From: Malacoraja senta | Taxonomy: Eukaryota | Reading direction: 5' to 3' | Length of the DNA stretch: 54,998 bases | Assembly (NCBI GenBank): GCA_038087875.1 | Contig: CM075989.1 | Coordinates: 25,422,001-25,476,998, forward strand | In this document: piece by piece, positions 2,839 through 38,227 of the stretch | Layout: the number at the start of each line of letters is the position of its first letter | Position numbering within the stretch: the stretch's first letter is position 1 | Program-made: the position numbers and the translations under genes | Notes under the pieces: generated by a model | Database searches by the model: none | What the model was told of the DNA's origin: nothing | The model's input: only the letters and a program-made list of their open reading frames with translations

Positions 2839-5800
2839 CTAGACTGTGGCCCTCCCCCACCGAGCCTTGTCGTTGGTTGCACCAAGCTTCAGTGCGTCCC
2901 TCAGCACGTACTCCTGCAGTCTGCAGCGGGCCAGTCGGCAACATTCCCTGACGGACATCTCGCTCTGCTGTGTGGTGAACAATGCTCGGGCAGACCAAAG
3001 AGCATCTTTTGCCGAGTTGATGACCCTCCAGCAGCACCCGATGTCAGTCTCTGAATGTGTCCCTGGGAACAGTCCGTAAATCACAGAGTCCTCTGTGACG
3101 GAGCTGTTCGGGATAAAGCGTTCCAGGGACCCTTGAATACTTCTCCAGACTCTTTTTGCAAATCCACACTCTGCAAAGAGGTGGGCAACCGTCTCCTCTC
3201 CATAGCAGCCGTCCCGAGGGCAGCGTGCGCTGGCAGTGAGGTTCCGACGGTGCAGGAAGGATCTGACTGGGAGGGCTCCCCTCACCGCCAGCCAAGCCAA
3301 ATCTTGGTGCTTGTTGGTGAGTTCTGGCAATGAGGCATTTTGCCAGACAAGCTGGGCAGTCTGCTCTGGGAACCACGCCACCGGATCCATGGAGTCCTTT
3401 CCCTGCAGTGCCTGCAGGACGTTCCGTGCTGACCACTGCCCAATGGACATGTGGTCAAAGGTGTTGGTCCGGAAGAACCTTTCCACAGACAGATGGTGCG
3501 GCAATGTCCAGCTGACTGGCACATTGTGTGGCATCTGCGCCAGGCCCATCCTTCGCAACACCGGGGACAGGTAGAACCTCAGCAGGTAGTGACACGGTGC
3601 CCACGTGCCTTGGTTCTACACTCCGCCTGATGCAGCCACACACAAAGATGGCCATCAGGGTGAGGGCGACGTTGGGCACGCCTTTTACCCCCGTTGTCTG
3701 CTGACTTGTACATTGTGGCCCGTCGCACCCGGTCTATCCTTGACCCCCAGATGAACTGGAAGACGGCCCGGGTGATCCCTGTGGCGTAGGAGGGAGGGAC
3801 AGGCCACACTTGCGCCAAGTACAGCAGCCCCGAGAGCACCTCACACCTGATGACCAAATTTTTTCCGGTTATGGAGAGGGAGCGTTGCCTCCACAGCTCC
3901 AGCTTCTTCCCCACCTTGACTATCCGCTCCAGCCAATTCTTGTTACACGCCTCAGCCCCCCCGAACCAGATCCCCAGCACCTTCAAGAAGTCAGGCTTGA
4001 TGGTGAAGGGGACAGAAATTCGGTCGGGCCAGTTGCCAAATAGCATGGCCTCGCTCTTCCTGCGGTTCACCCTGGCTCCCGTGGCCGACTCAAACTGGTC
4101 GCAAATACTAATCAGTCTGCGGACCGACCCTGGATCCGAGCAGAAGACAGCGACATCGTCCATGTACAGGGAGGTTTTGACTTGAATGCCCCCACTGCCT
4201 GGCAATGTCACTGCTCTTATGCTCGCATCCTTCCTGATGGACTCGGCAAAAGGTTCAATACAGCAGACAAACAAGACAGGAGAGAGAGGGCACCCCTGCC
4301 TGACTCCAGACCTTACAGGGAAACTGTCTGATTTCCACCCATTGATTTGGACTGCACTACGGATATTGGGGTAGAGCAGTTTGATCCAATTTCGGATTCC
4401 CTCCTCAAAACCCATTTTGGAGAGCACGTCCCTCATGTACGTGTGCGATATCCTGTCGAAGGCCTTCTCCTGGTCCAAGCTGACTAGGCAGGTATCCACC
4501 CATCTGTCCTGCACTTGGGCGATGGTATCTCACAGCAGCACTAGGCTGTCTGAGATTTTCCTGCCAGGTACAGCACAGGTTTGGTCCGGGTGGATCACCT
4601 GTCCCAGAGCAGACTTGACCCGGTTGGCGATGGCCTTAGACAGGATCTTATAATCTACATTCAACAATGTGATGGGTCTCCAATTCTTTATGTCCTTCAT
4701 CTCCCCCTTCTGCTTGTAGATTAGGGTGATGCTGCCCTTCCTCATCGAGTCTGACATGCTGCCGGCTAGAAGCATGTCGTTGTACACTTCCAGCAGGTCC
4801 GGGCCCACCCAGTCCCACAGAGCTGAATACAACTCGGCCGGTAAGCCATCACTTCCGGGAGTTTTACTCGAGTCAAAGGAACGGATGGAGCCAGTCAGCT
4901 CCTCTAGGGTCAGTAGTTGCTCCAGACTCTCCCGCTTGCTGTCCTCCAAGACCTCCGTGATAGAGGACAGGAAGTTTTGGAAGGCGGTGCTGTCTGTGGC
5001 CTTTTTGTCATACAAATCCGTATAAAAGGATTTGCAGATCCTCAGCATATCCGTCTGCAAGGATGTTACCGAGCCGCCCTCCTCCCTAAGGCTGTTCATC
5101 ACAGAGCTTCCCCTGTGAACCTTATGGAAGAAGAAACGTGAGCACGTCTCATCCTGCTCCACATGGCGGACCCTGGATCGGAAGATGATCTTGGAGGATT
5201 CAGAGGTAAAGAGCCGGGCTTGCCGGTCCTTCACCTCTCTAAGTTCCTCCCTCACATCCACCCCTCTCGACTGCAGAAGGAGCAGTTGTTGCAAATCTGT
5301 CTGGAGTTGGCATAATTCCCTCTGACTCTCTGAACTCTTTTAACTATGAAGAACCTCTTAATGTTCTCCTTGGTTGCTTCCCACCAGAGTGTCGGGGAGT
5401 CAAAGAGGGGCCTCACCGTTCTCCAACATGCGTAGTCCCTCTTTAGCTCCTCAACGTTCTCTGCGGTCAACAGTTTCATATTTAACTTCCACGTCCCTCT
5501 GCCTGCCTTCTGGTCCTCCTGTAGGTGACAGAAAGCCCGAAGGAGGCAGTGGTCAGAGAAGAACACCGGCGTGAGGTCGGTGTGTCTCACCGTGACAGCC
5601 TTCGTCGTGAAGACAAATGTACGATCTCGACCAGGTGAACTGCGGCTGGGACCCGCCTGCAGGGTTGCTGAAGGCATCATCACCAGGTGAACTGCTGCTG
5701 GGACCCACCTGCAGGGTTGCTGAAGGCGTCGTGCAGCTTTGCATCTTTGACCGTCTCCATGAGGAACTTGGACGTGCTTGTCCAGTCTGTTGTCGGCACT

Positions 5801-7279
5801 GCCGGATCGTCCAGCCGCATCGATGATGCAGTTGAAGTCACCGGCCAGAACGAGCTGCCGGGACGTGGCCAGCAGCACTGGGAGCTGCTGGAGAACGGCC
5901 AGCCGCTCGCTCTGCACGGGTGAGGCATACACATTAATCAGCCGGAGCGGAGAACCACGGTACATAACATCCACCATGAGGAGACGGCCCCCAACCACCT
6001 CCCTGACCTCAGTGATGGCGAAGTTCCCTCCCCGCAGCAAGATCCCCAGGCCAGAATCGCAACAGTCATTGCCCCCCGACCACACCGACTGTCCGTGGAG
6101 CCACCATCGCGACCACCTCCGATAGCAACGGAGGTGTGGCAGCCCGCACTCCTGAAGAAAAGTCACATCTGCCTTGACCTTGGCCAGGTACTGTAAGGCA
6201 TTAACACATAGAAACATAGAAAATAGGTGCAGGAGTAGGCCATTCGGCCCTTCGAGCCTGCACCGCCATTCAATATGATCATGGCTGATCATCCAACTCA
6301 GTATCCCGTACCTGCCTTCTCTCCATACCCCCTGATCCCTTTAGCCACAAGGGCCACATCTAACTCCCTCTTAAATATAGCCAATGAACTGGCCTCAACT
6401 ACCTTCTGTGGCAGAGAATTCCACAGATTCACCACTCTCTGTGTAAAAAATGATTTTCTCATCTCGGTCCTAAAAGACTTCCCTCTTATCCTTAAACTGT
6501 GACCCCCTAGTTCTAGACTTCCCCAACATCGGGAATAATCTTCCTGCATCTAGCCTGTCCAACCCCTTAAGAATTTTGTAAGTTTCGATAAGATCCCCCC
6601 TCAATCTTCTAAATTCTAGCGTGTACAAGCCGAGTCTATCCAGTCTTTCTTCATATGAAAGTCCTGCCATCCCAGGAATCAGTCTGGCGAACCTTCTCTG
6701 TACTCCCTCTATGGCAAGAATGTCTTTCCTCAGATTAGGAGACCAAAACTGTACGCAATACTCCAGGTGTGGTCTCACCAAGACCCTGTACAACTGCAGT
6801 AGAACCTCCCTGCTCTTATACTCAAATCCTTTTGCTATGAATACTAACATACCATTTGCTTTCTTCACTGCCTGCTGCACCTGCATGCCTACTTTCAATG
6901 ACTGGTGTACCATGACACCCAGGTCTCGTTGCATCTCCCCTTTTCCTAATCGGCCACCATTCAGATAATAGTCTACTTTCCTGTTTTTGCCACCAAAGTG
7001 GATAACCTCACATTTATCCACATTATACTGCATCTGCCATGCATTTGCCCACTCACCCAACCTATCCAAGTCACCTTGCAGCCTCCTAGCATCCTCCTCA
7101 CAGCTAACACTGCCCTCCAGCTTCCTGTCATCCGCAAACTTGGAGATGTTGCATTCAATTCCCTCATCCAGATCATTAATATATATTGTAAATAACTGGG
7201 GTCCCAGCACTGAGCCTTGCGGTACCCGCGCAGTGCTCTTTATACTGCGCACGTTTAAAGATGCCAGTTTTAGCTCCAT
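2839..7279 (-). pseudogene. Tx1 ORF2 (AP endonuclease, reverse transcriptase, C-terminal CxxxC..HLF.EC motif), disrupted
   Basis: ATG at 7279 gives MELKLASLNVRSIKSTAR, resuming after the CR1 insert as CVNALQYL..FLQE..GDFNC..SDH; RT motifs PGSDGLP, WRPITLLNVDYKI, LDQEKAFDR, GVRQGCPLSP, YMDD; several frameshifts. Confidence 0.92.
6209..7226 (-). mobile_element. Young 5'-truncated CR1 nested in the Tx1 endonuclease
   Basis: VPQGSVLGP, KFADD and LVRPHLEYCVQFWSP, ending in GEKAGTGY*; (TTTCTATG) tail; near-identical to copies at 24.2, 28.2, 44.0 and 53.3 kb. Confidence 0.95.
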
Positions 7280-7290
7280 TGTCTTTAGAG

Positions 7291-8747
7291 TCACTGACCA
7301 TTCTCGTGTCCCCTCATGCCCACCGCTTCGGTGAATTGCCTCCGCTTTCTTGGGCTCAGGAACCCGGTGCCGGCATCCTCGATGAGGTGGGTTTCCTGTG
7401 GCGTAACCCAAGGTGTCGTTGGGGGGGGCCTACTCGTTCCACCCTCTTCTGGGCGCGCTGCTGCCTCCATCTCCTGTAGTTGGGGTATGGTGGCTGGTTC
7501 AGGGGTTGGATACCCTCGGCCGCTGCCCTCATTCCGATGTCCTGGGGCTGGAGCCCATCGGCCGCTGCTCTGCTCTCGGTCTCCTGGGGCTGGGGGATGA
7601 TCGGCGTGGCCTTTCTCTTTTCCTCCCCTGTTTTCTTCCTCTGCCTCCATCGTTGGGACTTCCCGGTCGCCTCATCCTCCGATGAGGAGAGGTTGCTGCC
7701 TTCTGTCAGGGAGAGAGATCTTTTTGGGGATTTATTTTTGGACTTACCAGCCCTTTCCGACCTCGGCTCTTTCGGCTGAACCCTCTGGTGCTTCTTGTAC
7801 GTCACCGTCGTCCATTTATCCTGCTGTTCCCCCTCCTCCATTGACTCTCCCTCCTGGGCAGGGTGCTGGGGGCCTCCTTCCGGCACTTGGGGGCTCGAGC
7901 TGGTCGGGCTGTCCTCGTCCCTGTTCCCCCTTTCTGCTGGGGTCTTGGCAGTGGTGGGGGGTGTCTCACCCACCCTGGAGGTGCTGGCAGCAGCCCCTCT
8001 TGTCGCCTGAGCATAGGTGCAGGCTCTTTTAGGGCAGGCCCTGTAAAGGTGGCCTGCCTCCCCGCACAGGTTGCAGTTCTTGCTGGCCTGACAGTCCTTT
8101 GTCTCATGGCCCTCCGTCTTGCAGTTCTTGCAGACAACTGCAGTGCATTGGACCATCACATGCCCAGGCTTGTTGCATTTCCTGCACAGTCTGGGCTGCC
8201 CCACGTAGCTCATGTATCCTCGGTTTCCTCCAATCGCGAAAACCGAGAGAGGGTGGAGGATTGCTCCGTCCTTGTACACCCTCAGCTTTACCTTCACTTG
8301 CCGCTTGCTCGTCCAGATCCCATTCAGGTCCTTCACGTCCACGCAGTTCCATGTTCCCTCAACGTAACGAGCAAGGAAGGTGAGGACATCCACTACGGGC
8401 ACATGTGGGTTGAACATGTGCACCATGATCATCCTGTCCTTCTGGGTGGGGGGGATGAAGAGCGGCTGCACTTTCAGTAGCGACAGCGGAGCTTCATTTC
8501 CCTTCTCCCGGAAGTCTTCCATCAACTTTTGCCTTCCCGTCGGATACTTGAAGGTAACATCAAAGTATCCGTTACCCGGGAAGTCCTGGAGGCAGTAGAT
8601 GTCCTTGGCCTCAAATTTGCAGGCCTCTAGCAAGACCTTCTTCACGAACAGGTCTCATGAGAAGGGGGTCCCCTTGCTGAGGTCCTTAACGCTGATTCTC
8701 AGGGTATTGCGGATACCCTGTACTCCCGCTCCAGTTGCTGCTGCCAT
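7291..8747 (-). pseudogene. Tx1 ORF1, zinc-knuckle (ZCCHC3-like) protein
   Basis: ATG at 8747 gives MAAATGAGVQGIRNTLRISVK, with an in-frame TGA near 8655; knuckles CRKCNKPGHVMVQC, CKNCKTEGHETKDC and CNLCGEAGHLYRAC; 3' end uncertain because of a frameshift. Confidence 0.9.
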
Positions 8748-18266: not shown

Positions 18267-20165
18267 TAGAAACATAGAAACAAATAAGAAAGGTGCAGGA
18301 GCAGGCCATTCGGCCCTTCGAGCCAGCACCGCCATTCATTGTGATCATGGCTGATCATCCACAATCAGTAACCCGTGCTTGCCTTCTCCACATATCCCTT
18401 GATTCCGCTAGCCCCTAGAGCTCTATCTAACTCTCTTTTAAATTCATCCAGTGAATTGGCCTCTACTGCCCTCTGTGGCAGAGAATTCTACAAATTCACA
18501 ACTCTCTGGGTCAAAAAGTTTTTTTCTCATCTCAGTTTTAAATGGCCTCCCCTTTATTCTTAGACTGTGGCCCTTGGTTCTGGACTGCACACAATACTCC
18601 ACATGTGGTCTCACCAGGGCCCTGTACAACTACAGAAGGACCTCTTTACTCCTATGCTCAAATCCTCTTGTTATGAAGGCCAACATGCCATTAGCTGTCT
18701 TCACTGCCTGCTGTTCCTGCATGTTTACTTTCAGTGACTGGTGTACAAGGACACCCAGGTCTCGTTGCACTACCCTTTTTCCTAATCTGACACCATTGAG
18801 AAAATAATCTGCCTCCTTGTTCTTGCCGCCAAAGCGGATAACCTCACATTTATCTACATTATACTGCATCTGCCATGCATCTGCCCACTCACTCAACCTG
18901 TCCAAGTCACCCTGCAACCTCCTAGCATCCTCTTTGCAGTTCACACTGCCACCCAGCTTTGTGTCATCTGCAAATTTGCTAGTGTTACTTTTAATCTCAT
19001 CATCTAAATCATTAATACATATTGTAAATAGTTGCGGCCCCAGCACCGAGCCTTGTGGCACTCCACTCGCCACTGCCTGCCATTCTGACAGGGACCTGTT
19101 TATTCCAATTTTCTATTCATATCAATACCCTATCCCCAATACCATGTGCTCTAACTTTGCCCAGTAATCTCCTGTGTGGGACCTTATCAAAGGCTTTCTG
19201 AAAGTCTAGATACACTACATCCACTGGCTCTCCTTCATTCATTTTACTTGTCACATCCTCAAAAAATTCCAGAAGATTAGTCAAGCAAGATTTCCCCTTT
19301 ATAAATCCATGCTGACTTGGACCAATCCTTTTACTGCTATCCAAATGCGCCGTTATTACTTATTTAATAATTGACTCCAGCATCTTCCCCACCACCGATA
19401 GGGAATATGCCCTTTTTCCCCATTTTCTCTCTCGCTCCTTTCTTGAAAAGTGAGATAACATTAGCTACCCTCTAATCCACAGAAACTGATCCTGAATCTA
19501 TAGAACATTGGAAAATGATCACCAATGCATCCACGATTTCTAGAGCCACTTCCTTGAGTACCCTGGGATGCAGACCATCAGGTCCTGGGATTTATCAGCC
19601 TTTCGTCCAATCAGTCTACCCAATACTATTTCTCGCTTAATGCAAATTTCTTTCAGTTCCTCTGTCTCCCTATATCCTCTGTCCTCTAGTACATCTGGGA
19701 GATTGTTTGTCTTCCTTAATGAAGACAGAACCAAAGTACCTGTTCAACTCTTCTGCCATTTCCTTGTTCCCCATAACCATTTCTGCCTTCAAGGGACTCA
19801 CATTTGTCTTTACTAATCTTTATCTCTTAACATACATAAAGAGGCTTTTACTATCCTTCTTTATATTCTTGGCCAGCATACCGTCGTACTGCATCTCTTC
19901 ACCCCTTATTGCCCTTTTTGTTACCTTCTGTTGTCTTTTGAAAGTTTCCCAATCCTCTGGCTTCCTGCTATTCTTTGCTATGTTATACACTTTTTCTTTT
20001 AGTTTTATTCCAACCCTAACTTCCCTTGTCAGCCACAATTGCCTCTTACTCCCCTTAGAATCTTTCTTTGGAATGAAATTATGCTGCATCTTCTGGATTA
20101 TGTCCAGAAATTCCTGCCATTGCTCTTCCACCGTCATTCCTGCTAAGATTCTTTTCCAGTCAATC
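18267..20165 (-). mobile_element. CR1 LINE, 5'-truncated with internal deletions
   Basis: QHGFIKGKSCLTNL, DFQKAFDKVP, GVPQGSVLGP, KFADD; sequence jumps near 18585 and 19115; (TTTCTATG) tail. Confidence 0.9.
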
Positions 20166-26039: not shown

Positions 26040-28250
26040 TCAGAATTCTTCATCGACACTTCCATCTTCACTTTTGCCTTCTAGAAGCAAGCATAACTTG
26101 GTTATTGGTCTTATTAAAACACTGTTTTTAGTTTGAAATCGTACCGTACGCACCAAACCCTTAACATCAGGCACGATTTCTAGTATTCTCCCCATCAGCC
26201 GAGAACCTCATGATGCTGTGGAATCAACCACCAACACAATGTCACCTGGAACAAAATTCCTTTTAATTCTTAACCATCGTTGTCATTCTTGGATCAAAGG
26301 CAAATACTCTTGTATACATCTCCTCGAAAAAAGATTTGCCATATATTTTACTTGTTTCCATCTGCGTCTCATATACAAGTCTTCTTTTACAAAAATCCCA
26401 GGTGGTAGTGTTGGATTGGTCTTCAGCAGAATATGATTTGGTGTAAGTACTTCTACGTCTTTCGGGTCATCAGAATTCTTAGTAATAGGTCGATTATTTA
26501 AAATTGCTTCAACTTCACAAAACAAAGTCTGTAATCCTTCGTCATCTAGAATTTGTTGTTTAAGAACAGAGCGCAGCACATTTCGTACCATGCGAATGAA
26601 CCGTTCCCACATGCCACCATGATGAGAACACTTCGGAGGGTTAAAGTTTCATCTTATTCCTTGATGAAGCATAGTTTTCTGGATTTTATCCTGATTTAAG
26701 CTTTTAAGCGCCTTCTTTAGTTCTCTTTCCACTCCAACAAAATTTGAACCGTTATCTGATCTTAACGATGAAACTTGACCTCGTCGACAGATAAATCTCC
26801 TTAATGCATGAATACAGGAGCCTGTGTCAAGCGTAGATGCAACTTCAAGATGCACTGCTCTACTTGCCATACAAGTGAAGATCACACCATACCTTTTCAC
26901 AAAGTCTTGTCCTCTTTTAAACTCTATAGGACCGAAATAATCCACCCCCACATCTGTAAACGGAGGTTTATCCAGTGTGATCCTTTCTAGAGGTAACTCT
27001 GCCATCTTCTGTACACCAAATCTCCCACGTGCACAATACAATATTTTATTATTTTTCTTGCGGCGGAATTAGCCTTGATAACCCAATATTTTTAACAAAG
27101 CTGGGATAACATATAATTTCTTCCTCCATGTCCAATCCGTTCATGAATATGTCACAATAATAGTGTCGATATGTAAAAGTCCTTCGAGAGAATAATAGGG
27201 TGTTTAGCATCTTCAGGCATTGCCAATTTATTTAGGCGACCTCCCATCCTCAGAAGTCCTTCCTCCAATACTGGGTCAAACTTGTACAATTGACTGTCTC
27301 TTTTTACCCCATGTACTACAGCTTCTAATGTTGATATCTCTTCTTTATATTTCTGTCTTTGACAGAACGAGATAATCGTATTTTCCGCCTTGAGGAGATC
27401 ATCAAGACGTAAATCCTGTACGCCATATGATGCCTTAAACTTGCATCTGGCTTCCAACCTTTTTCTTCCGTATATCAGGATCTTCTTCAAGGATACTTTC
27501 AGTAATCCGTCTTCTTTTCCGAGCAAACAGTAATAATCTTGTTTTTAGTTTAAGAAACCAGGCTACTGCAGTTATCAATTTATTTTATGATGAAAAGTGG
27601 GTAATTAAATCATTTATGGTATTTGATGAATCTTTAGCAATTACGTTCACCGTAAAACGTTGTTTAATTTCCGGATCATTAGCAGAGATTTCACATCCCA
27701 GTTCAAGTTTTGGCCATTCTCTGTTTGACTTACAGAGAAACTCTGGTCCATTGATCCTCTCTTGTTGCTTAAGAAGCAGTTTGCTGTCAGCCCTCTAGAG
27801 GCTTGATCTGCAGGATTTTCTTTTGTGTTAACCTATTTCCATTGTGAAACATTAGTAGCTCCCAATACAATAGAGACTCTATTCGCTACAAATGTCATAA
27901 AGCGTTTGTTTTCATTATTGAAGTATACAAGTACCGTAGTGCTATCGGTCCAGAAGATAGATTCTTCCAGTTGAAGCTGTAGTTCCTTTTGCATCATTAT
28001 GTCAACTTTAACAGCCAAGACTGCCGCAGTAAGTTCCATTCTGGGAATTGTCATTTGTTTCAATGGTGCCACTCTGGCTTTTCCCATCAAGAATGCAACA
28101 TGTATTTCATTGTTATCATTTTCCAGTCTTAAATACGAAACAGTACCATAGCCACTTTCACTGGCATCTGAGAAATTATGCAACTGTGCACTTCTGATTT
28201 TACCAAAGCTTTTAGGCTTTATGCACCAGTCCACCTTGAATTTTGAAATC
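26040..28250 (-). pseudogene. BEL/Pao pol C-terminal part (RNase H region, integrase, DUF5641-like tail), disrupted
   Basis: QLHNFSDASESGYG, KARVAPLK..TIPRMELTAA, FWTDS, GVDYFGP, RAVHLE, SDNGSNF, LNNRP, RPITKLCLL; stop at 26040-26042. Confidence 0.92.
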
Positions 28251-29566
28251 ATTGGACAAAGTCAGCATGGATTTACGAACGGTAAATCATGTCTGACGAA
28301 TCTTATAGAATTTTTCGAGGATGTAACTAGTAGAGTGGATAGGGGAGAACCAGTGGATGTGTTGTATCTGGACTTTCAGAAGGCTTTCGACAAGGTACCA
28401 CATAAGAGATTAATATACAAACTTAAAGCACACGGTATTGGGGGTTCAGTATTGATGTGGATAGAGAACTGGCTGGCAAACAGGAAGCAAAGAGTAGGAG
28501 TAAACGGGTCCTTTTCACAATGGCAGGCAGTGACTAGTGGGGTACCGCAAGGCTCAGTGCTGGAACCCCAGCTATTTACAATTTATATTAATGAGCTGGA
28601 TGAGGGAATTGAAGGCAACATCTCCAAGTTTGCGGATGACACTAAGCTGGGGGGCAGTGTTAGCTGTGAGGAGGATGCTAGGAGACTGCAAGGTGACTTG
28701 GATAGGCTGGGTGAGTGGGCAAATGTTTGGCAGATGCAGTATAATGTGGATAAATGTGAGGTTATCCACTTTGGTGGCAAAAACAGGAAAGCAGACTATT
28801 AACTAAATGGCGGCCGATTAGGAAAAGGGGAGATGCAGCGAGACCTGGGTGTCATGGTACACCAGTCATTGAAAGTAGGCATGCAGGTGCAGCAGGCATT
28901 GAAGAAAGCTAATGGTATGTTAGCTTTCATAGCAAAAGGATTTGAGTATAGGAGCAGGGAGGTTCTACTGCAGTTGTACAGGGTCTTGGTGAGACCACAC
29001 CTGGAGTATTGCATACAGTTTTGGTCTCCAAATCTGAGGAAGGACATTATAGCCATAGAGGGAGTGCAGAGAAGGTTCACCAGACTGATTCCTGGGATGT
29101 CATGACTTTCATATGAAGAAAGACTGGATAGACTCGGCTTATACTCGCTAGAATTTAGGAGATTGAGAGGGGATCTTATAGAAACTTACAAAATTCTTAT
29201 GGGGTTGGACAGGCTAGATGCAGGAAGATTGTTCCCGATGTTGGGGAAGTCCAGGACAAGGGGTCACAGCTTAAGGATAAGGGGGAAATCCTTTAAGACC
29301 GAGATGAGAAAAAACGTTTTCACACAGAGAGTGGTGAATCTCTGGAACTCTCTGCCACAGACGGTAGTTGAGGCCAGTTCATTGGCTATATTTAAGAGGG
29401 AGTTAGATGTGGCCCTTGTGGCTAAAGGGATCAGGGGGTATGGAGAGAAGGCAGGTACGGGATACTGAGTTGGATGATCAGCCATGATCATATTGAATGG
29501 CTGTGCAGGCTCGAAGGGCCGAATGGCCTACTCCTGCAACTATTTTCTATGTATCTATGTATCTAT
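28244..29566 (+). mobile_element. Young 5'-truncated CR1 replacing the 5' half of the BEL element
   Basis: SQHGF..SCLTNL through GEKAGTGY*; (TATCTATG)n tail. Confidence 0.95.
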
Positions 29567-34009: not shown

Positions 34010-34177
<168 letters not shown>

Positions 34178-34514: not shown

Positions 34515-35829
34515 TCACCCGATGTGCTGTAGCTGTATGATGTGGGAGCTGGTGGACCCCTTGTGGTTCCTGGTGACCACATCTACAATAAGAGTTGGTT
34601 GATTGAAGAACACAGCCTCAAAGTTGACGACCTGGAGTCTGAGCTTCAAACACTGAGGCACATCAGGGATGGGGAGAATTACTTGGACGCTGTGTTTCTA
34701 GAGGTAGTCACACCGATTAGAGTAACTGCTTCCAACGTGGTCCGTGGTCAGGAGGAGGATGTGATTGTAAGTGAGGTAGGCAAGGAAATAGAGGTAAGGG
34801 CAGTGTTAAAGGAACCCCAGCCCTTGAGCTTGTCAGGTGGGTCTGAGATTCTTGATCCCTGTGTAGGAAGGATGAGCAATCTAACCAGGGCATCATGATT
34901 CGGGGGGGGGGGGGGGGCATTCAAGAGGGGAGAGAGGGAAGAAAAGCATAGTTGTCATTTGGGATAGTATAGTTTGGGGAGTAGACACTATTCTCTGTCA
35001 CGAGGATCGGGAGTCCCAAAGGTTGTGTTGCCTGCCTGATGCTGGGTTCGGGACCTCTCTTCTAAGCTATAGAGGAACTTGGAGTGGTAGGGAAAATATC
35101 TAGTTTGGACTACTCCAAATGTGATGATCTACTGGACATTCTTAATGGGAAAGTAGTGGGCAGAAAGGCATGTCATGCATGGTTTGAGGAGCAAAAACCT
35201 GTAGTTTACAATGCCAAAATTGATAAGTTGAGAATAAACAAGGTGCACAGAGTTGCTTATTGGTTATTGGAGTATGATGATGCGACTGATGATATGCCAA
35301 TGTACCAGCTAGCAACTGATCTTCTCCATAAAGTCTTGGTCTATTGCTAGAAATTGTAATTTATTGTGGGTATATGTGGGTACCAATGACATAGGTAGAA
35401 TGAGGAAAAGGGTTCTGCTAAGGGAATTTGAGCAGCTAGGGGCTAAATTGAAAAGTAGAACCAAAAAGGAAATAATTTCTGGATTGCTACCTGAGCCACA
35501 AGCAAATTGGCACAGGGTTGAGAACATTAAAGAGTTGAACGTGTGGCTCAAAGATTGGTGTGGAAGAAGTGGTTTAAATTTGTGGGATATTGGCACCAAT
35601 ATTGGGGAAGGGGGGAGCTGTTCTCAACGTGACCCGGCTGGGACCTGGGTCCTGACAAACTACATAACCAGAACTAAATAGTGGGGAGGGGGTCATCAAA
35701 TTGGAAATGTGTGGATGAAGTAAAGGGAAGGAGAGTGCAGGAGAGGCTACAGAGTTTGTCGAGCATAAGGCGACCGTGGCTGACAAGGGAAGTCAAAGAC
35801 AGCATAAATCTAAAAGAGAAGGCATATAA
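34515..35829 (+). mobile_element. Old CR1 (ORF1 zinc finger and SGNH esterase, start of ORF2), continuing at 37734-38222 and 42139-42520
   Basis: CCSCMMWE, WDSIV, VYVGTNDIGR, IISGLLPEP, PWLTREVK; interrupted by three younger insertions. Confidence 0.8.
35104..35365 (+). repeat. Dispersed duplicate of 36975-37242 (transposon coding exon fragment)
   Basis: Near-identical sequence with a net 6-nt deletion. Confidence 0.95.
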
Positions 35830-37733
35830 TAACGATGTTACAAAACCTACCTTCAGCGGCGCTCCAGATCTGCCACTGGCTGTGCGTTCGACTCCAGAGC
35901 CTTTGAGGGGGGGGGGGGGGATTAAAATGCAGGTTTGTATTGCTTGTCGGAGAGGGATTTCCTCGGGCTGCCAGTTGATGAAGAAAAATCGATCGGACTT
36001 CCGTTCCGGGTTTTTTTTTGTTTTTGTTTTAAAAAAATTAAAAAAATCGCTGGACAATTTAATCGCTGGATTAAAGTAAAAAGCGACTTCTAACGCCCTC
36101 AACACCTTCAACGTCACAGATCGCAATATCAGGACAAAACAAAAGGTACGTCGTTTATTTCACATATAATCTTGCTTCTTCGGGTGGCTTTAGTTTAATT
36201 TTATGATGGGAAAATGTTATTTAGTCCCCATACGAGTCGGCCGTGTCTTGCCTGCCGATATGGGCTTAACATTCACGGCAACGGCAACGTTCCAATCGAT
36301 CACATTCCAGAAACACCCACTCTCAAGATGATTAAAATTCTCTATTTTTTGGGACAATCATGTCATAAGAACATCTAAATCATCTATATTTTGTGTTATT
36401 GTCTATCCATAATCAATATTTTTATACTAAATATCCACAACAGTTTTAGTCACATGCATTGTGCAAAAAATAATAATTTTGATTATATTGAGAGTGGATG
36501 TTTCTAGATTAATTTATGGGAATTAAACATTAAATTCCTTCCATTTGGCAAATAAGTTCATGACAGTGAGATTTAAAAATCATGTTATATTGTGAATTCT
36601 TGTGTGAATGGGATCAGTTTGTTATTTGGATACTTAGGCTATTTAAAAATGTTAGCCTTTTCTTAAGAAATGGATTGATGTTTAGATCTAGTAATTAAAT
36701 TTAGATGAATTGATTAGATGAATTTAATTGATTTGATGAAACTAATGAATATGAATTTTTTGTTGGGTATTTACTATTTGTTTTAGCGTTTAGCTTTATC
36801 ATTTCTACCTTTTTTCTAAAACTGCAAATAATAACTTGTTTCTGTTAATGCTGTTCAGTGTTTCTTTTCCTTTATATTTTAAACAGATGTCTCCGAAGAA
36901 GAAATGCAAAATTGTCAATTCAAATGCCCAGCAAAAGAGACTGATTTAGACAGCATTCGCAGAGATTATCCGAATTTGGACTACTCCAAATGTGATGATC
37001 TACTGGACATTCTTAATGGGAAAGTAGTGGGCAGAAAGGCATGTCATGCATGGTTTGAAGAGCAAAAACCTGTAGTTTACAATGCCAAAATTGATAAGTT
37101 GAGAATAAACAAGGTGCACAGAGTTGCTTATTGGTTACAATCTGAGGAGTATGATGATGCGACTGATGATATGCCAATGTACCAGCTAGCAACTGATCTT
37201 CTCCATAAAGTCTTGGTCTATTGCTAGAAATTGTAATTTATTTACCTATCTGTTACGGACTTACAGCATATAATACAATAATATTAAAGTTCTGATCTTG
37301 AGAATATCATATTTTTGAATTTTCAAGGCAGTCTGGGTGTTACTATTTCCATGACAACGGTCAATTTTGTAATTAGCTACAATTAGGTAACTAACTAATT
37401 ATATGCTTTAATTTCAGGTCATCCAAGTAAGATGTTTTATATTTGTTTCAGAATGCTTCAATCTATAATTACTGAAAATTTCATTCAGTTTTCTTAATTT
37501 TTAAGAAAGCTATGGGCTTTTGACTGTCCTCGATCACAGCTTTTGTGTTAAGTCAATGGAAAAGCAATAGGGAACAAGATGCAAATTTCCGAGTATGAAA
37601 ATGGCCATAACATTTTTAATACTGAAGATATGAAAGTGAATTAGGTGTCAAATTAAAGTTCTTTTTATGCTTTATCTGATGGGATAAATTACAGGCTTGA
37701 TTTTTAAATTCTCAAAATTTTGTAACATTCCTA
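35830..37733 (+). mobile_element. Non-autonomous DNA transposon (hAT-like?) with 7-bp TSD
   Basis: TSD CATATAA (35823-35829 and 37734-37740); imperfect TIRs TAACGATGTTACAAAA and TTTTGTAACATTCCTA; the host CR1 reads through once the element is removed. Confidence 0.85.
36887..37227 (+). pseudogene. Transposon-borne terminal exon encoding a Spindlin/Tudor-like domain
   Basis: Strong acceptor tttcttttcctttatattttaaacag, frame open to TAG; VVGRKACHAWFEEQKPV...MYQLATDL resembles Spin/Ssty repeats (by eye). Confidence 0.55.
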
Positions 37734-38227
37734 CATATAACATTACAAACATTAGTGGGAAGCTAGAGAATTTGGAAGCTTTTAAAAACCAACTGAAGGT
37801 AACTAAAAAGGCAATACGTGGAGAAGAGGAAATATGAAATTAAGCAAGCCAATAATATAGCAAAAATTTCCTCAGATATATTACGAGTAAGAAGGAGGCA
37901 AGAGTGGACATGAGAGTGCTGGAAAATGATGCTGGAGAAGTGATAATGGGGATTAAAGAAATGGCAGATGAATTCAAACTTTTTTTTGCATCAGTCTTCA
38001 CAATGGAAGACAACAGCAACGTGCCTGAAATTCAAGAGCGTCAGAGGGTGAACGTGAGTGAAGTGTCTATTACTAAGGAGAAGGTGCTTGGGAAGCTGAA
38101 AGGTCTGAGTTGGATAAGTCACCTGGACCGAATGGCCTGCACCCCAGGCTTCTGGTAGAGGTGGCTTTAGAGATTGTGGAGACATTAGATGTGATCTTTC
38201 AAGAATCACTCCAATCACTCCAATCAG

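Follow-up and report, generated by a model that had tools for sequence, protein, structure and literature searches.

Within a CR1 LINE fragment in the genome of Malacoraja senta lies a short DNA transposon that had been described as retaining an exon with a Spindlin-like fold. The locus raises the question of whether such a domain belongs to a transposase, what it may do there, and whether the copy at hand still makes any use of it. The window (the whole stretch of DNA that was analysed) is 54,998 nucleotides long, and all positions refer to it unless a locus is named.

The transposon in the window

The element is a non-autonomous, internally deleted, hAT-like DNA transposon of 1,904 bp (35830-37733, plus strand), inserted in the CR1 LINE fragment. 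Its boundaries are as follows.

35823..35829 (no strand): left target-site duplication (TSD), CATATAA; ends compared, flanks fused in related CR1 copies
35830..37733 (plus): hAT-like transposon body; multi-copy family, both ends match a 4.27-kb autonomous element
35830..35845 (plus): left terminal inverted repeat (TIR), 16 bp
37718..37733 (minus): right TIR, 16 bp
37734..37740 (no strand): right TSD, CATATAA; ends compared, matches the left TSD

The preliminary description had reported a 1.9-kb element with imperfect TIRs and the TSD CATATAA, and its coordinates proved exact; the two 16-bp repeats differ at three positions. In related CR1 copies (in the window near 19980, minus strand, and at locus L106) the two flanks are directly joined, and since these copies carry the flanks without an element between them, the CATATAA 7-mer is a real duplication.

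The proposed splice sites (donor GT at 36146, acceptor AG at 36885-36886) likewise turned out to be real. The donor site reads GTAAGT in most copies, and one contig, from one public run, is joined across exactly the intron of the window element, with 29 letters on its short side. The kind of this run is uncertain, and it was flagged as probably DNA. No record holding the element in the public contig search is on record as RNA, and contigs cannot show expression. The intron does not separate coding exons but sits in the 5' untranslated leader. The gene remnant is arranged as follows.

35830..36145 (plus): first exon, presumably non-coding; the frames of its three ATGs each end 5' of the donor
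36146..36886 (plus): GT-AG intron within the transposase gene's 5' leader; donor kept across copies, one contig joined, homologous leader in the autonomous element
36887..36931 (plus): transposase start codon and codons 1-15 (basic, NLS-like); match to residues 1-15 of the 978-aa ORF
36932..36933 (plus): deletion junction, two bases left, frameshift; parent codons 16-880 absent
36934..37227 (plus): transposase codons 881-978 and stop (one codon deleted); accessible only via the internal ATG 36904
37018..37224 (plus): single Spin/Ssty-like Tudor domain (predicted from profile and model)
37051 (W), 37078 (Y), 37129 (Y) (plus): presumed cage codons of the window copy; the conserved Y/F codon near 37168 is deleted

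A second piece of the same sequence lies nearby.

35104..35365 (plus): most of the domain-coding stretch, repeated locally; scores highest against the window copy (501, next copy 449)

This piece of 262 bp, situated 0.46 kb upstream of the element in the same CR1 and without TIRs or TSD, shares the private changes of the window copy and has a few matching bases at each end. It was likely a templated insertion during DNA repair after the element had arrived, as judged from the sequence.

The wider neighbourhood contains an exon of a mitochondrial carrier gene (34010-34159; Pfam Mito_carr, E 1.4e-9), which we take to be SLC25A23/24/25-like. The element lies 1.7 kb downstream of this exon on the same strand, probably in an intron, and its donor and acceptor lie in the sense direction of the carrier gene. 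Fragments at 26283-28261 (minus strand), interrupted by a CR1 copy, presumably derive from a BEL/Pao LTR retrotransposon pol gene, and 2839-8654 (minus strand) holds what we take to be a broken Tx1/L1-like LINE (ORF1 with zinc knuckles, endonuclease, reverse transcriptase).

An autonomous parent type in the same genome

The autonomous parent supposed in the preliminary description has its type represented in the same genome: a 4.27-kb element with one 978-aa ORF (16 wider loci), whose transposase core is predicted to be Hermes-like. One longer protein relative was found first and led to 94 genomic matches. Ten of the 16 fetched loci encode a 978-aa protein differing by 0-5 residues, three loci encode the identical protein, and eight of 15 other autonomous copies are at least 99.7% identical to one reference copy; from these sequences the intact 978-aa family looks very recently active. 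The autonomous element shares TIR type and the 7-bp TSD with the window element, to which it is 93% identical over the right 800 bp; the left arm is only 65-78% identical, and the true parent of the window copy is therefore probably a sister subfamily.

Among 1.84 billion representatives searched for homologues, 1,030 proteins reached E <=1e-10, with named relatives including Hydra, Patella, Littorina, Capitella, Myxine and cyprinid fishes. Elsewhere in the family, several ends and fragments cluster around one autonomous copy at locus L065 (G000:C17:9334500-9344499), with a further left end a few hundred bases beyond its right end, and autonomous copies sit within other short inverted-repeat elements (L062:2196-2380 and 6634-6818; L071). 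Further deletion derivatives of smaller size, several in number, are seen in contigs from related organisms (L064:3024-3103 fused to 5961-6336).

The deletion junction and the leftover frame

In the window copy the loss of parent codons 16-880 left two bases behind, so that the start codon, the ATG directly 3' of the acceptor (36887), and the domain lie in different frames. From this ATG, 27 of 30 copies reach a stop after 20 codons and two extend slightly further, still in the wrong frame; one copy is unreadable. An in-frame mini-protein from the start codon was accordingly rejected (0 of 29 readable copies read through into the domain), as was a coding first exon, the three upstream ATGs of which stop early without reaching the 113-codon terminal frame. 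This frame, earlier described as intact, is indeed open, but it is not a natural exon product, as it opens with 16 codons from the start of the transposase gene read in an incorrect frame, and only the following 97 are codons of the transposase C-terminus.

One way to use the leftover codons would be for the deletion family to make a free Tudor protein of 107-108 residues from the internal ATG 36904 by leaky scanning, which would regulate the autonomous transposase in the manner of internally deleted P-element repressors. Of 28 readable copies, 18 have this frame uninterrupted, splicing of the intron is possible (on the evidence of the one contig, probably DNA), the same deletion joint occurs in contigs of three organisms, and stops are slightly rarer than expected (6 vs about 12, P 0.056). 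On the other hand, the frame is broken in 10 of the 28, a better-placed ATG lies 17 bases upstream, and it is the other frame that holds the basic N-terminal signal. Compared with the family majority, 28 copies carry 38 silent, 122 replacement and six stop changes and 10 indels, and dN/dS of the remnant is 0.97, or 1.03 on distinct changes (binomial P 0.85-1.0; near-duplicates L010 and L012 left out). The window copy has moreover lost the conserved Tyr/Phe codon 959. We consider a free regulatory protein very improbable.

The claim that the window copy retains a functional exon could thus not be upheld, given the out-of-frame junction, the lack of detectable selection and the lost aromatic codon. 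Judged from these sequence data, its domain is best read as a passive remnant and not a selected mini-protein, and the copy itself is likely a dead derivative.

TSD length and target sites

The DNA search of the same genome gave at least 51 matches from the best 40 of 4,781 candidates scored, and the best full-length non-autonomous copies are 88-93% identical to the window element. TSD length was tabulated across the 30 best-scoring genomic copies, with the window copy counted and two near-duplicate pairs included. An exact 7-bp TSD was found in 20 of them and an exact 6- or 8-bp TSD in none; one has a TSD with one mismatch, and nine have damaged ends or no clear TSD. All eight autonomous copies with both ends located (16 fetched) have an exact 7-bp TSD.

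TSDs of hAT elements are usually 8 bp, and groups with 5, 6 and 7 bp exist. The earlier remark that 7 bp is atypical for hAT elements holds in that the usual 8 bp is not met here, but the length is a trait of the whole family, and hAT-like elements with 7-bp TSDs are in print, judging from the available text on the Repbase '7-bp TSD' hAT entries and on fungal hAT7 (PMC4455052; PMC12730594).

The target sites, compared in 54 distinct copies, are loosely palindromic, with C first in 29, G last in 28 and A/T inside. No target bias was seen when the flanks of 28 autonomous and 26 non-autonomous copies were compared with 434 background windows for GC, CpG ratio, CpG-island-like windows and repeat content, in a test of low power that concerns DNA composition only (near-duplicate loci L010, L012, L041 and L053 left out). 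CpG-island-like windows, for instance, occurred in 3 of 28 autonomous flanks, 2 of 26 non-autonomous flanks and 23 of 434 background windows. The right end of the element was found in two of 40 background 10-kb stretches (hand-picked round coordinates, not a random draw), from which it follows that ends of this or related families may number thousands.

Class of the transposase

Pfam searches with the 978-aa protein gave no matching family, and neither a PF05699 dimerisation domain nor a BED finger appeared up to E 10; a THAP domain match was likewise absent from Pfam. A profile search of the PDB with the transposase core found no relative by sequence. With the predicted structure of the core (pLDDT 90.5), all of the first 11 Foldseek rows were Hermes (best E 1.9e-6). 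VIA-align placed Hermes first (Z 17.1, rmsd 3.8, 345 residues; next Z 10.1) with the P element transposase far behind (Z 8.0, rmsd 6.8). The transposase is thus predicted to have a DDE RNase H fold with a large helical insertion, similar to that of Hermes.

The residues D429, D506, C531-x2-H534, R608 and E784 are kept in 28-29 of 29 long homologues. C531 and H534 are present in all 29, and a CxxH after the second Asp is, we assume, a hAT feature. An Arg-Trp motif at the start of the insertion domain presumably is another; here the conserved R608 is followed by Leu in 60 of 62 sequences, so that this motif is absent, and an invariant Pro-Trp is found at 669-670. As the Arg-Trp motif, PF05699 and the BED finger are all missing, the family is filed as hAT-like.

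Among known animal groups, hATw has 7-bp TSDs and was first described from Hydra. By description this Repbase group would fit the parent family, and many of the transposase homologues are Hydra records. The name hATw was not found in the available part of the supplement of PMC12730594. The fungal hAT7, which clusters with Ac/Tam3 according to the available text, is unlike the parent family, and a Tudor domain is not mentioned for groups with 7-bp TSDs in the text available from PMC4455052 and PMC12730594.

A Spin/Ssty-like domain at the C-terminus

The last 70 residues of the 978-aa transposase are Spin/Ssty-like by profile and model. The domain is no peculiarity of the window copy: 108 of 114 homologues long enough to hold the domain have it, including elements of Hydra and molluscs. 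Four of the six others keep the first part and then diverge, one has a degenerate match and one has none. Conservation is 41% in the domain, 47% in the core and 32% in the linker, and domain and core co-diverge (rho 0.82 for 25 sequences, pairs not independent).

Sequence evidence comes from a 66-sequence profile (alignment A4, in which 66 of 107 sequences were kept with a 55% identity filter). Searched against 177,635 PDB sequences, it ranked 17 spindlin rows first, at E 1.1e-4 to 0.014 (values that sum two repeats), and the next unrelated row followed at E 0.96. A first, less diverse profile had placed spindlins at E 0.11-0.33 only; from alignment A1, four of 58 candidate tails had been left out as near-duplicates or for an extended tail. 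Against the three repeats of the host spindlin the profile-profile probability was 91.9%. Host repeats 1 and 2 beat all 887 and 971 scored shuffles, with repeat 1 (15.7 bits) above repeat 2 (10.6 bits), and repeat 3 failed to score above shuffles. The host gene for the three-repeat spindlin was found with equal scores at G000:C1:146910001-146913122 and C1031:213027-216144, one of which may be an assembly duplicate.

Single sequences were less informative. The cut-off of Pfam PF02513 was reached by no single member (one of 54 at E 0.064; none of 66 at E 0.1), and the window frame gave no match to it. Single members more often match PTM_DIR17_Tudor (9 of 66, best E 4.5e-6). The window frame alone matched only DUF6012 in Pfam (E 0.13) and nothing in the PDB, and in the ESM Atlas an unnamed entry at 0.75; a second Atlas search listed a PTM/DIR17 Tudor (0.80) and Spin/Ssty (0.79), which we treat as leads only.

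In the predicted structure (pLDDT 93.4) the domain forms a barrel of four strands, after which come a helix and one short strand. Spindlins occupied ranks 2-5 and 7-11 in Foldseek, all at E above 0.03, and in a wide structural search the RDM15 Tudor (Z 6.1) tied with Spindlin-4 (Z 6.0). In a second look with VIA, rows 1-24 were spindlins (Z 6.3-7.2), mostly superposed on Spindlin repeat 2, the best rmsd values being 1.8-2.3 A over 63-66 residues. All Z values of the domain stayed below 8, and the RDM15 and BAHCC1 Tudors were about one Z unit behind spindlin.

We conclude that the Tudor-type identity of the domain is secure and that its closest kinship with Spin/Ssty is well supported, with the Pfam cut-off not reached. 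The preliminary description had thus rightly proposed a Spin/Ssty Tudor-like fold at a transposase C-terminus, borne out by the profile (E 1.1e-4) and by the predicted model on Spindlin1 repeat 2; the domain occurs across the family, and spindlins come first in the profile search. The MYQL/MYQL resemblance to SPIN1 behind that proposal was a good guess as to the fold, but the match was partly luck, as the four residues vary across homologues.

Candidate functions of the domain

The K4me3 cage of Spindlin1 consists of F141, W151, Y170 and Y177, according to the available text of PMC3967050. In the profile alignment W920, Y929 and Y946 of the transposase align with F141, W151 and Y170, and an aromatic residue stands at these positions in 107, 105 and 107 of 107 homologues. 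For the fourth position the profile alignment pairs P962 with Y177, whereas strand position and conservation suggest F959; residue 959 is aromatic in 93 of 107. The most conserved residues of the domain are the aromatics at the cage-equivalent positions.

We favour, with a probability of roughly 0.55, the reading that the window element is a deletion copy of a 7-bp-TSD transposon whose parent type joins a Hermes-like DDE transposase to a Tudor domain, both folds being predicted. The likely ligand of this domain is a methylated lysine or arginine, with a histone tail as its most probable carrier. The full-length transposase would bind the TIRs, cut, and insert the element into loosely palindromic sites of the form C-(A/T)5-G, the stagger being 7 bp. 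The aromatic pocket would hold the methylated residue, and the Tudor domain, on its long helical linker, might fasten the complex to nucleosomes bearing the mark, whether at the donor or at the target. Movement of the window copy would have taken place in trans.

A different role would be that of a structural or DNA-binding SH3-like barrel of the transpososome, comparable to the C-terminal domains of retroviral integrases and without methyl reading. Such barrels are common, the structural matches include Tn7 TnsB and TraI domains (Z 4.0-5.5), one hairpin of the domain is rich in lysine, and the flank test showed no insertion bias. It is at odds with the cage-equivalent aromatics being the most conserved positions, with the top sequence and structure matches all being methyl-mark readers and with a neutral net charge (11 basic and 11 acidic residues), and we regard it as unlikely, if to be taken seriously.

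The domain might instead read a methylated non-histone partner or mimic the host Spindlin, thereby countering silencing rather than picking targets, e.g. by competing with SPIN1 at the element's own chromatin or by capturing piRNA-pathway proteins that carry methyl-arginine. According to the available part of a recent report, SPIN1 uses its Tudor repeats to repress young transposons (10.64898/2026.08.20.746118). The profile places host repeat 1, which has the methyl-arginine pocket, above repeat 2, and the missing target bias would also fit. The domain is, however, found in Hydra and mollusc elements too. To our knowledge, three-repeat spindlins have not been described in Hydra and molluscs, and an anti-silencing role appears distinctly unlikely to us.

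Returning to the methyl-binding Tudor domain, the more specific proposal that a working single Spin/Ssty methyl-histone reader steers the hAT-like transpososome by chromatin state is a tentative one that we put at somewhat below even odds. The whole scenario, in which an old, widespread animal hAT-like lineage is guided by this reader and its repeat, once captured and triplicated, gave rise to the three-repeat spindlins that now silence young transposons, is speculative, and we give it little credence. That cnidarian and mollusc elements carry one mobile Spin/Ssty-like repeat also bears on the origin of spindlins. As the intact family looks very recently active, with identical 978-aa proteins at three loci, transposition and targeting are testable in cells. 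The value of the locus lies in this intact, recently mobile parent family, the window copy likely being an ordinary dead derivative.

Comparison with known systems

The parent transposase resembles Hermes and other hAT enzymes (PDB 6dwz, 4d1q, 8edg, 2bw3) in its predicted DDE RNase H fold with a large helical insertion, in the CxxH after the second Asp, in its short TIRs and in having non-autonomous deletion derivatives. It differs from them in that identity is about 10%, PF05699 and BED-finger matches are lacking, no Trp follows R608, the TSD is 7 bp, and a Tudor domain is present at the C-terminus.

With Spindlin 1-4 (PF02513; PDB 4mzh, 4uy4) the domain shares a significant profile match, the predicted fold, three cage-equivalent aromatics and a terminal helix-D-x3-GDL pattern. 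Unlike these proteins, which have three repeats in tandem, the transposase has a single one, with about 15% identity and a score below the Pfam cut-off, and its loop after strand 3 is nine residues longer and contains an invariant Trp.

No publication describing a fusion of a spindlin or Tudor domain with a DNA transposase was found in a search that covered few subscription papers or Repbase Reports. In the available text of a 2025 study, Gypsy-10_Ec32 is called the first reported transposable element with a Tudor domain (PMC12477816), and fusions of chromo and PHD domains with transposition enzymes, including hAT-chromodomain fusions in a sponge, appear in the part available of 10.1101/2021.11.30.470311, the supplements of which may list more. 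Chromovirus integrases, Gypsy-10_Ec32 and the sponge hAT-chromodomain fusions are, as far as the available descriptions go, alike in having a reader-type domain fused to a transposition enzyme. These known fusions are retrotransposons or lineage-restricted chromo or PHD cases, whereas here a DNA transposase lineage carries a Spindlin-like repeat in several animal phyla. Retroelements are already known to be tethered by chromatin readers; if a cut-and-paste transposase bears a conserved Spindlin-like domain, DNA transposons would join them, and the domain would represent a natural, removable targeting module.
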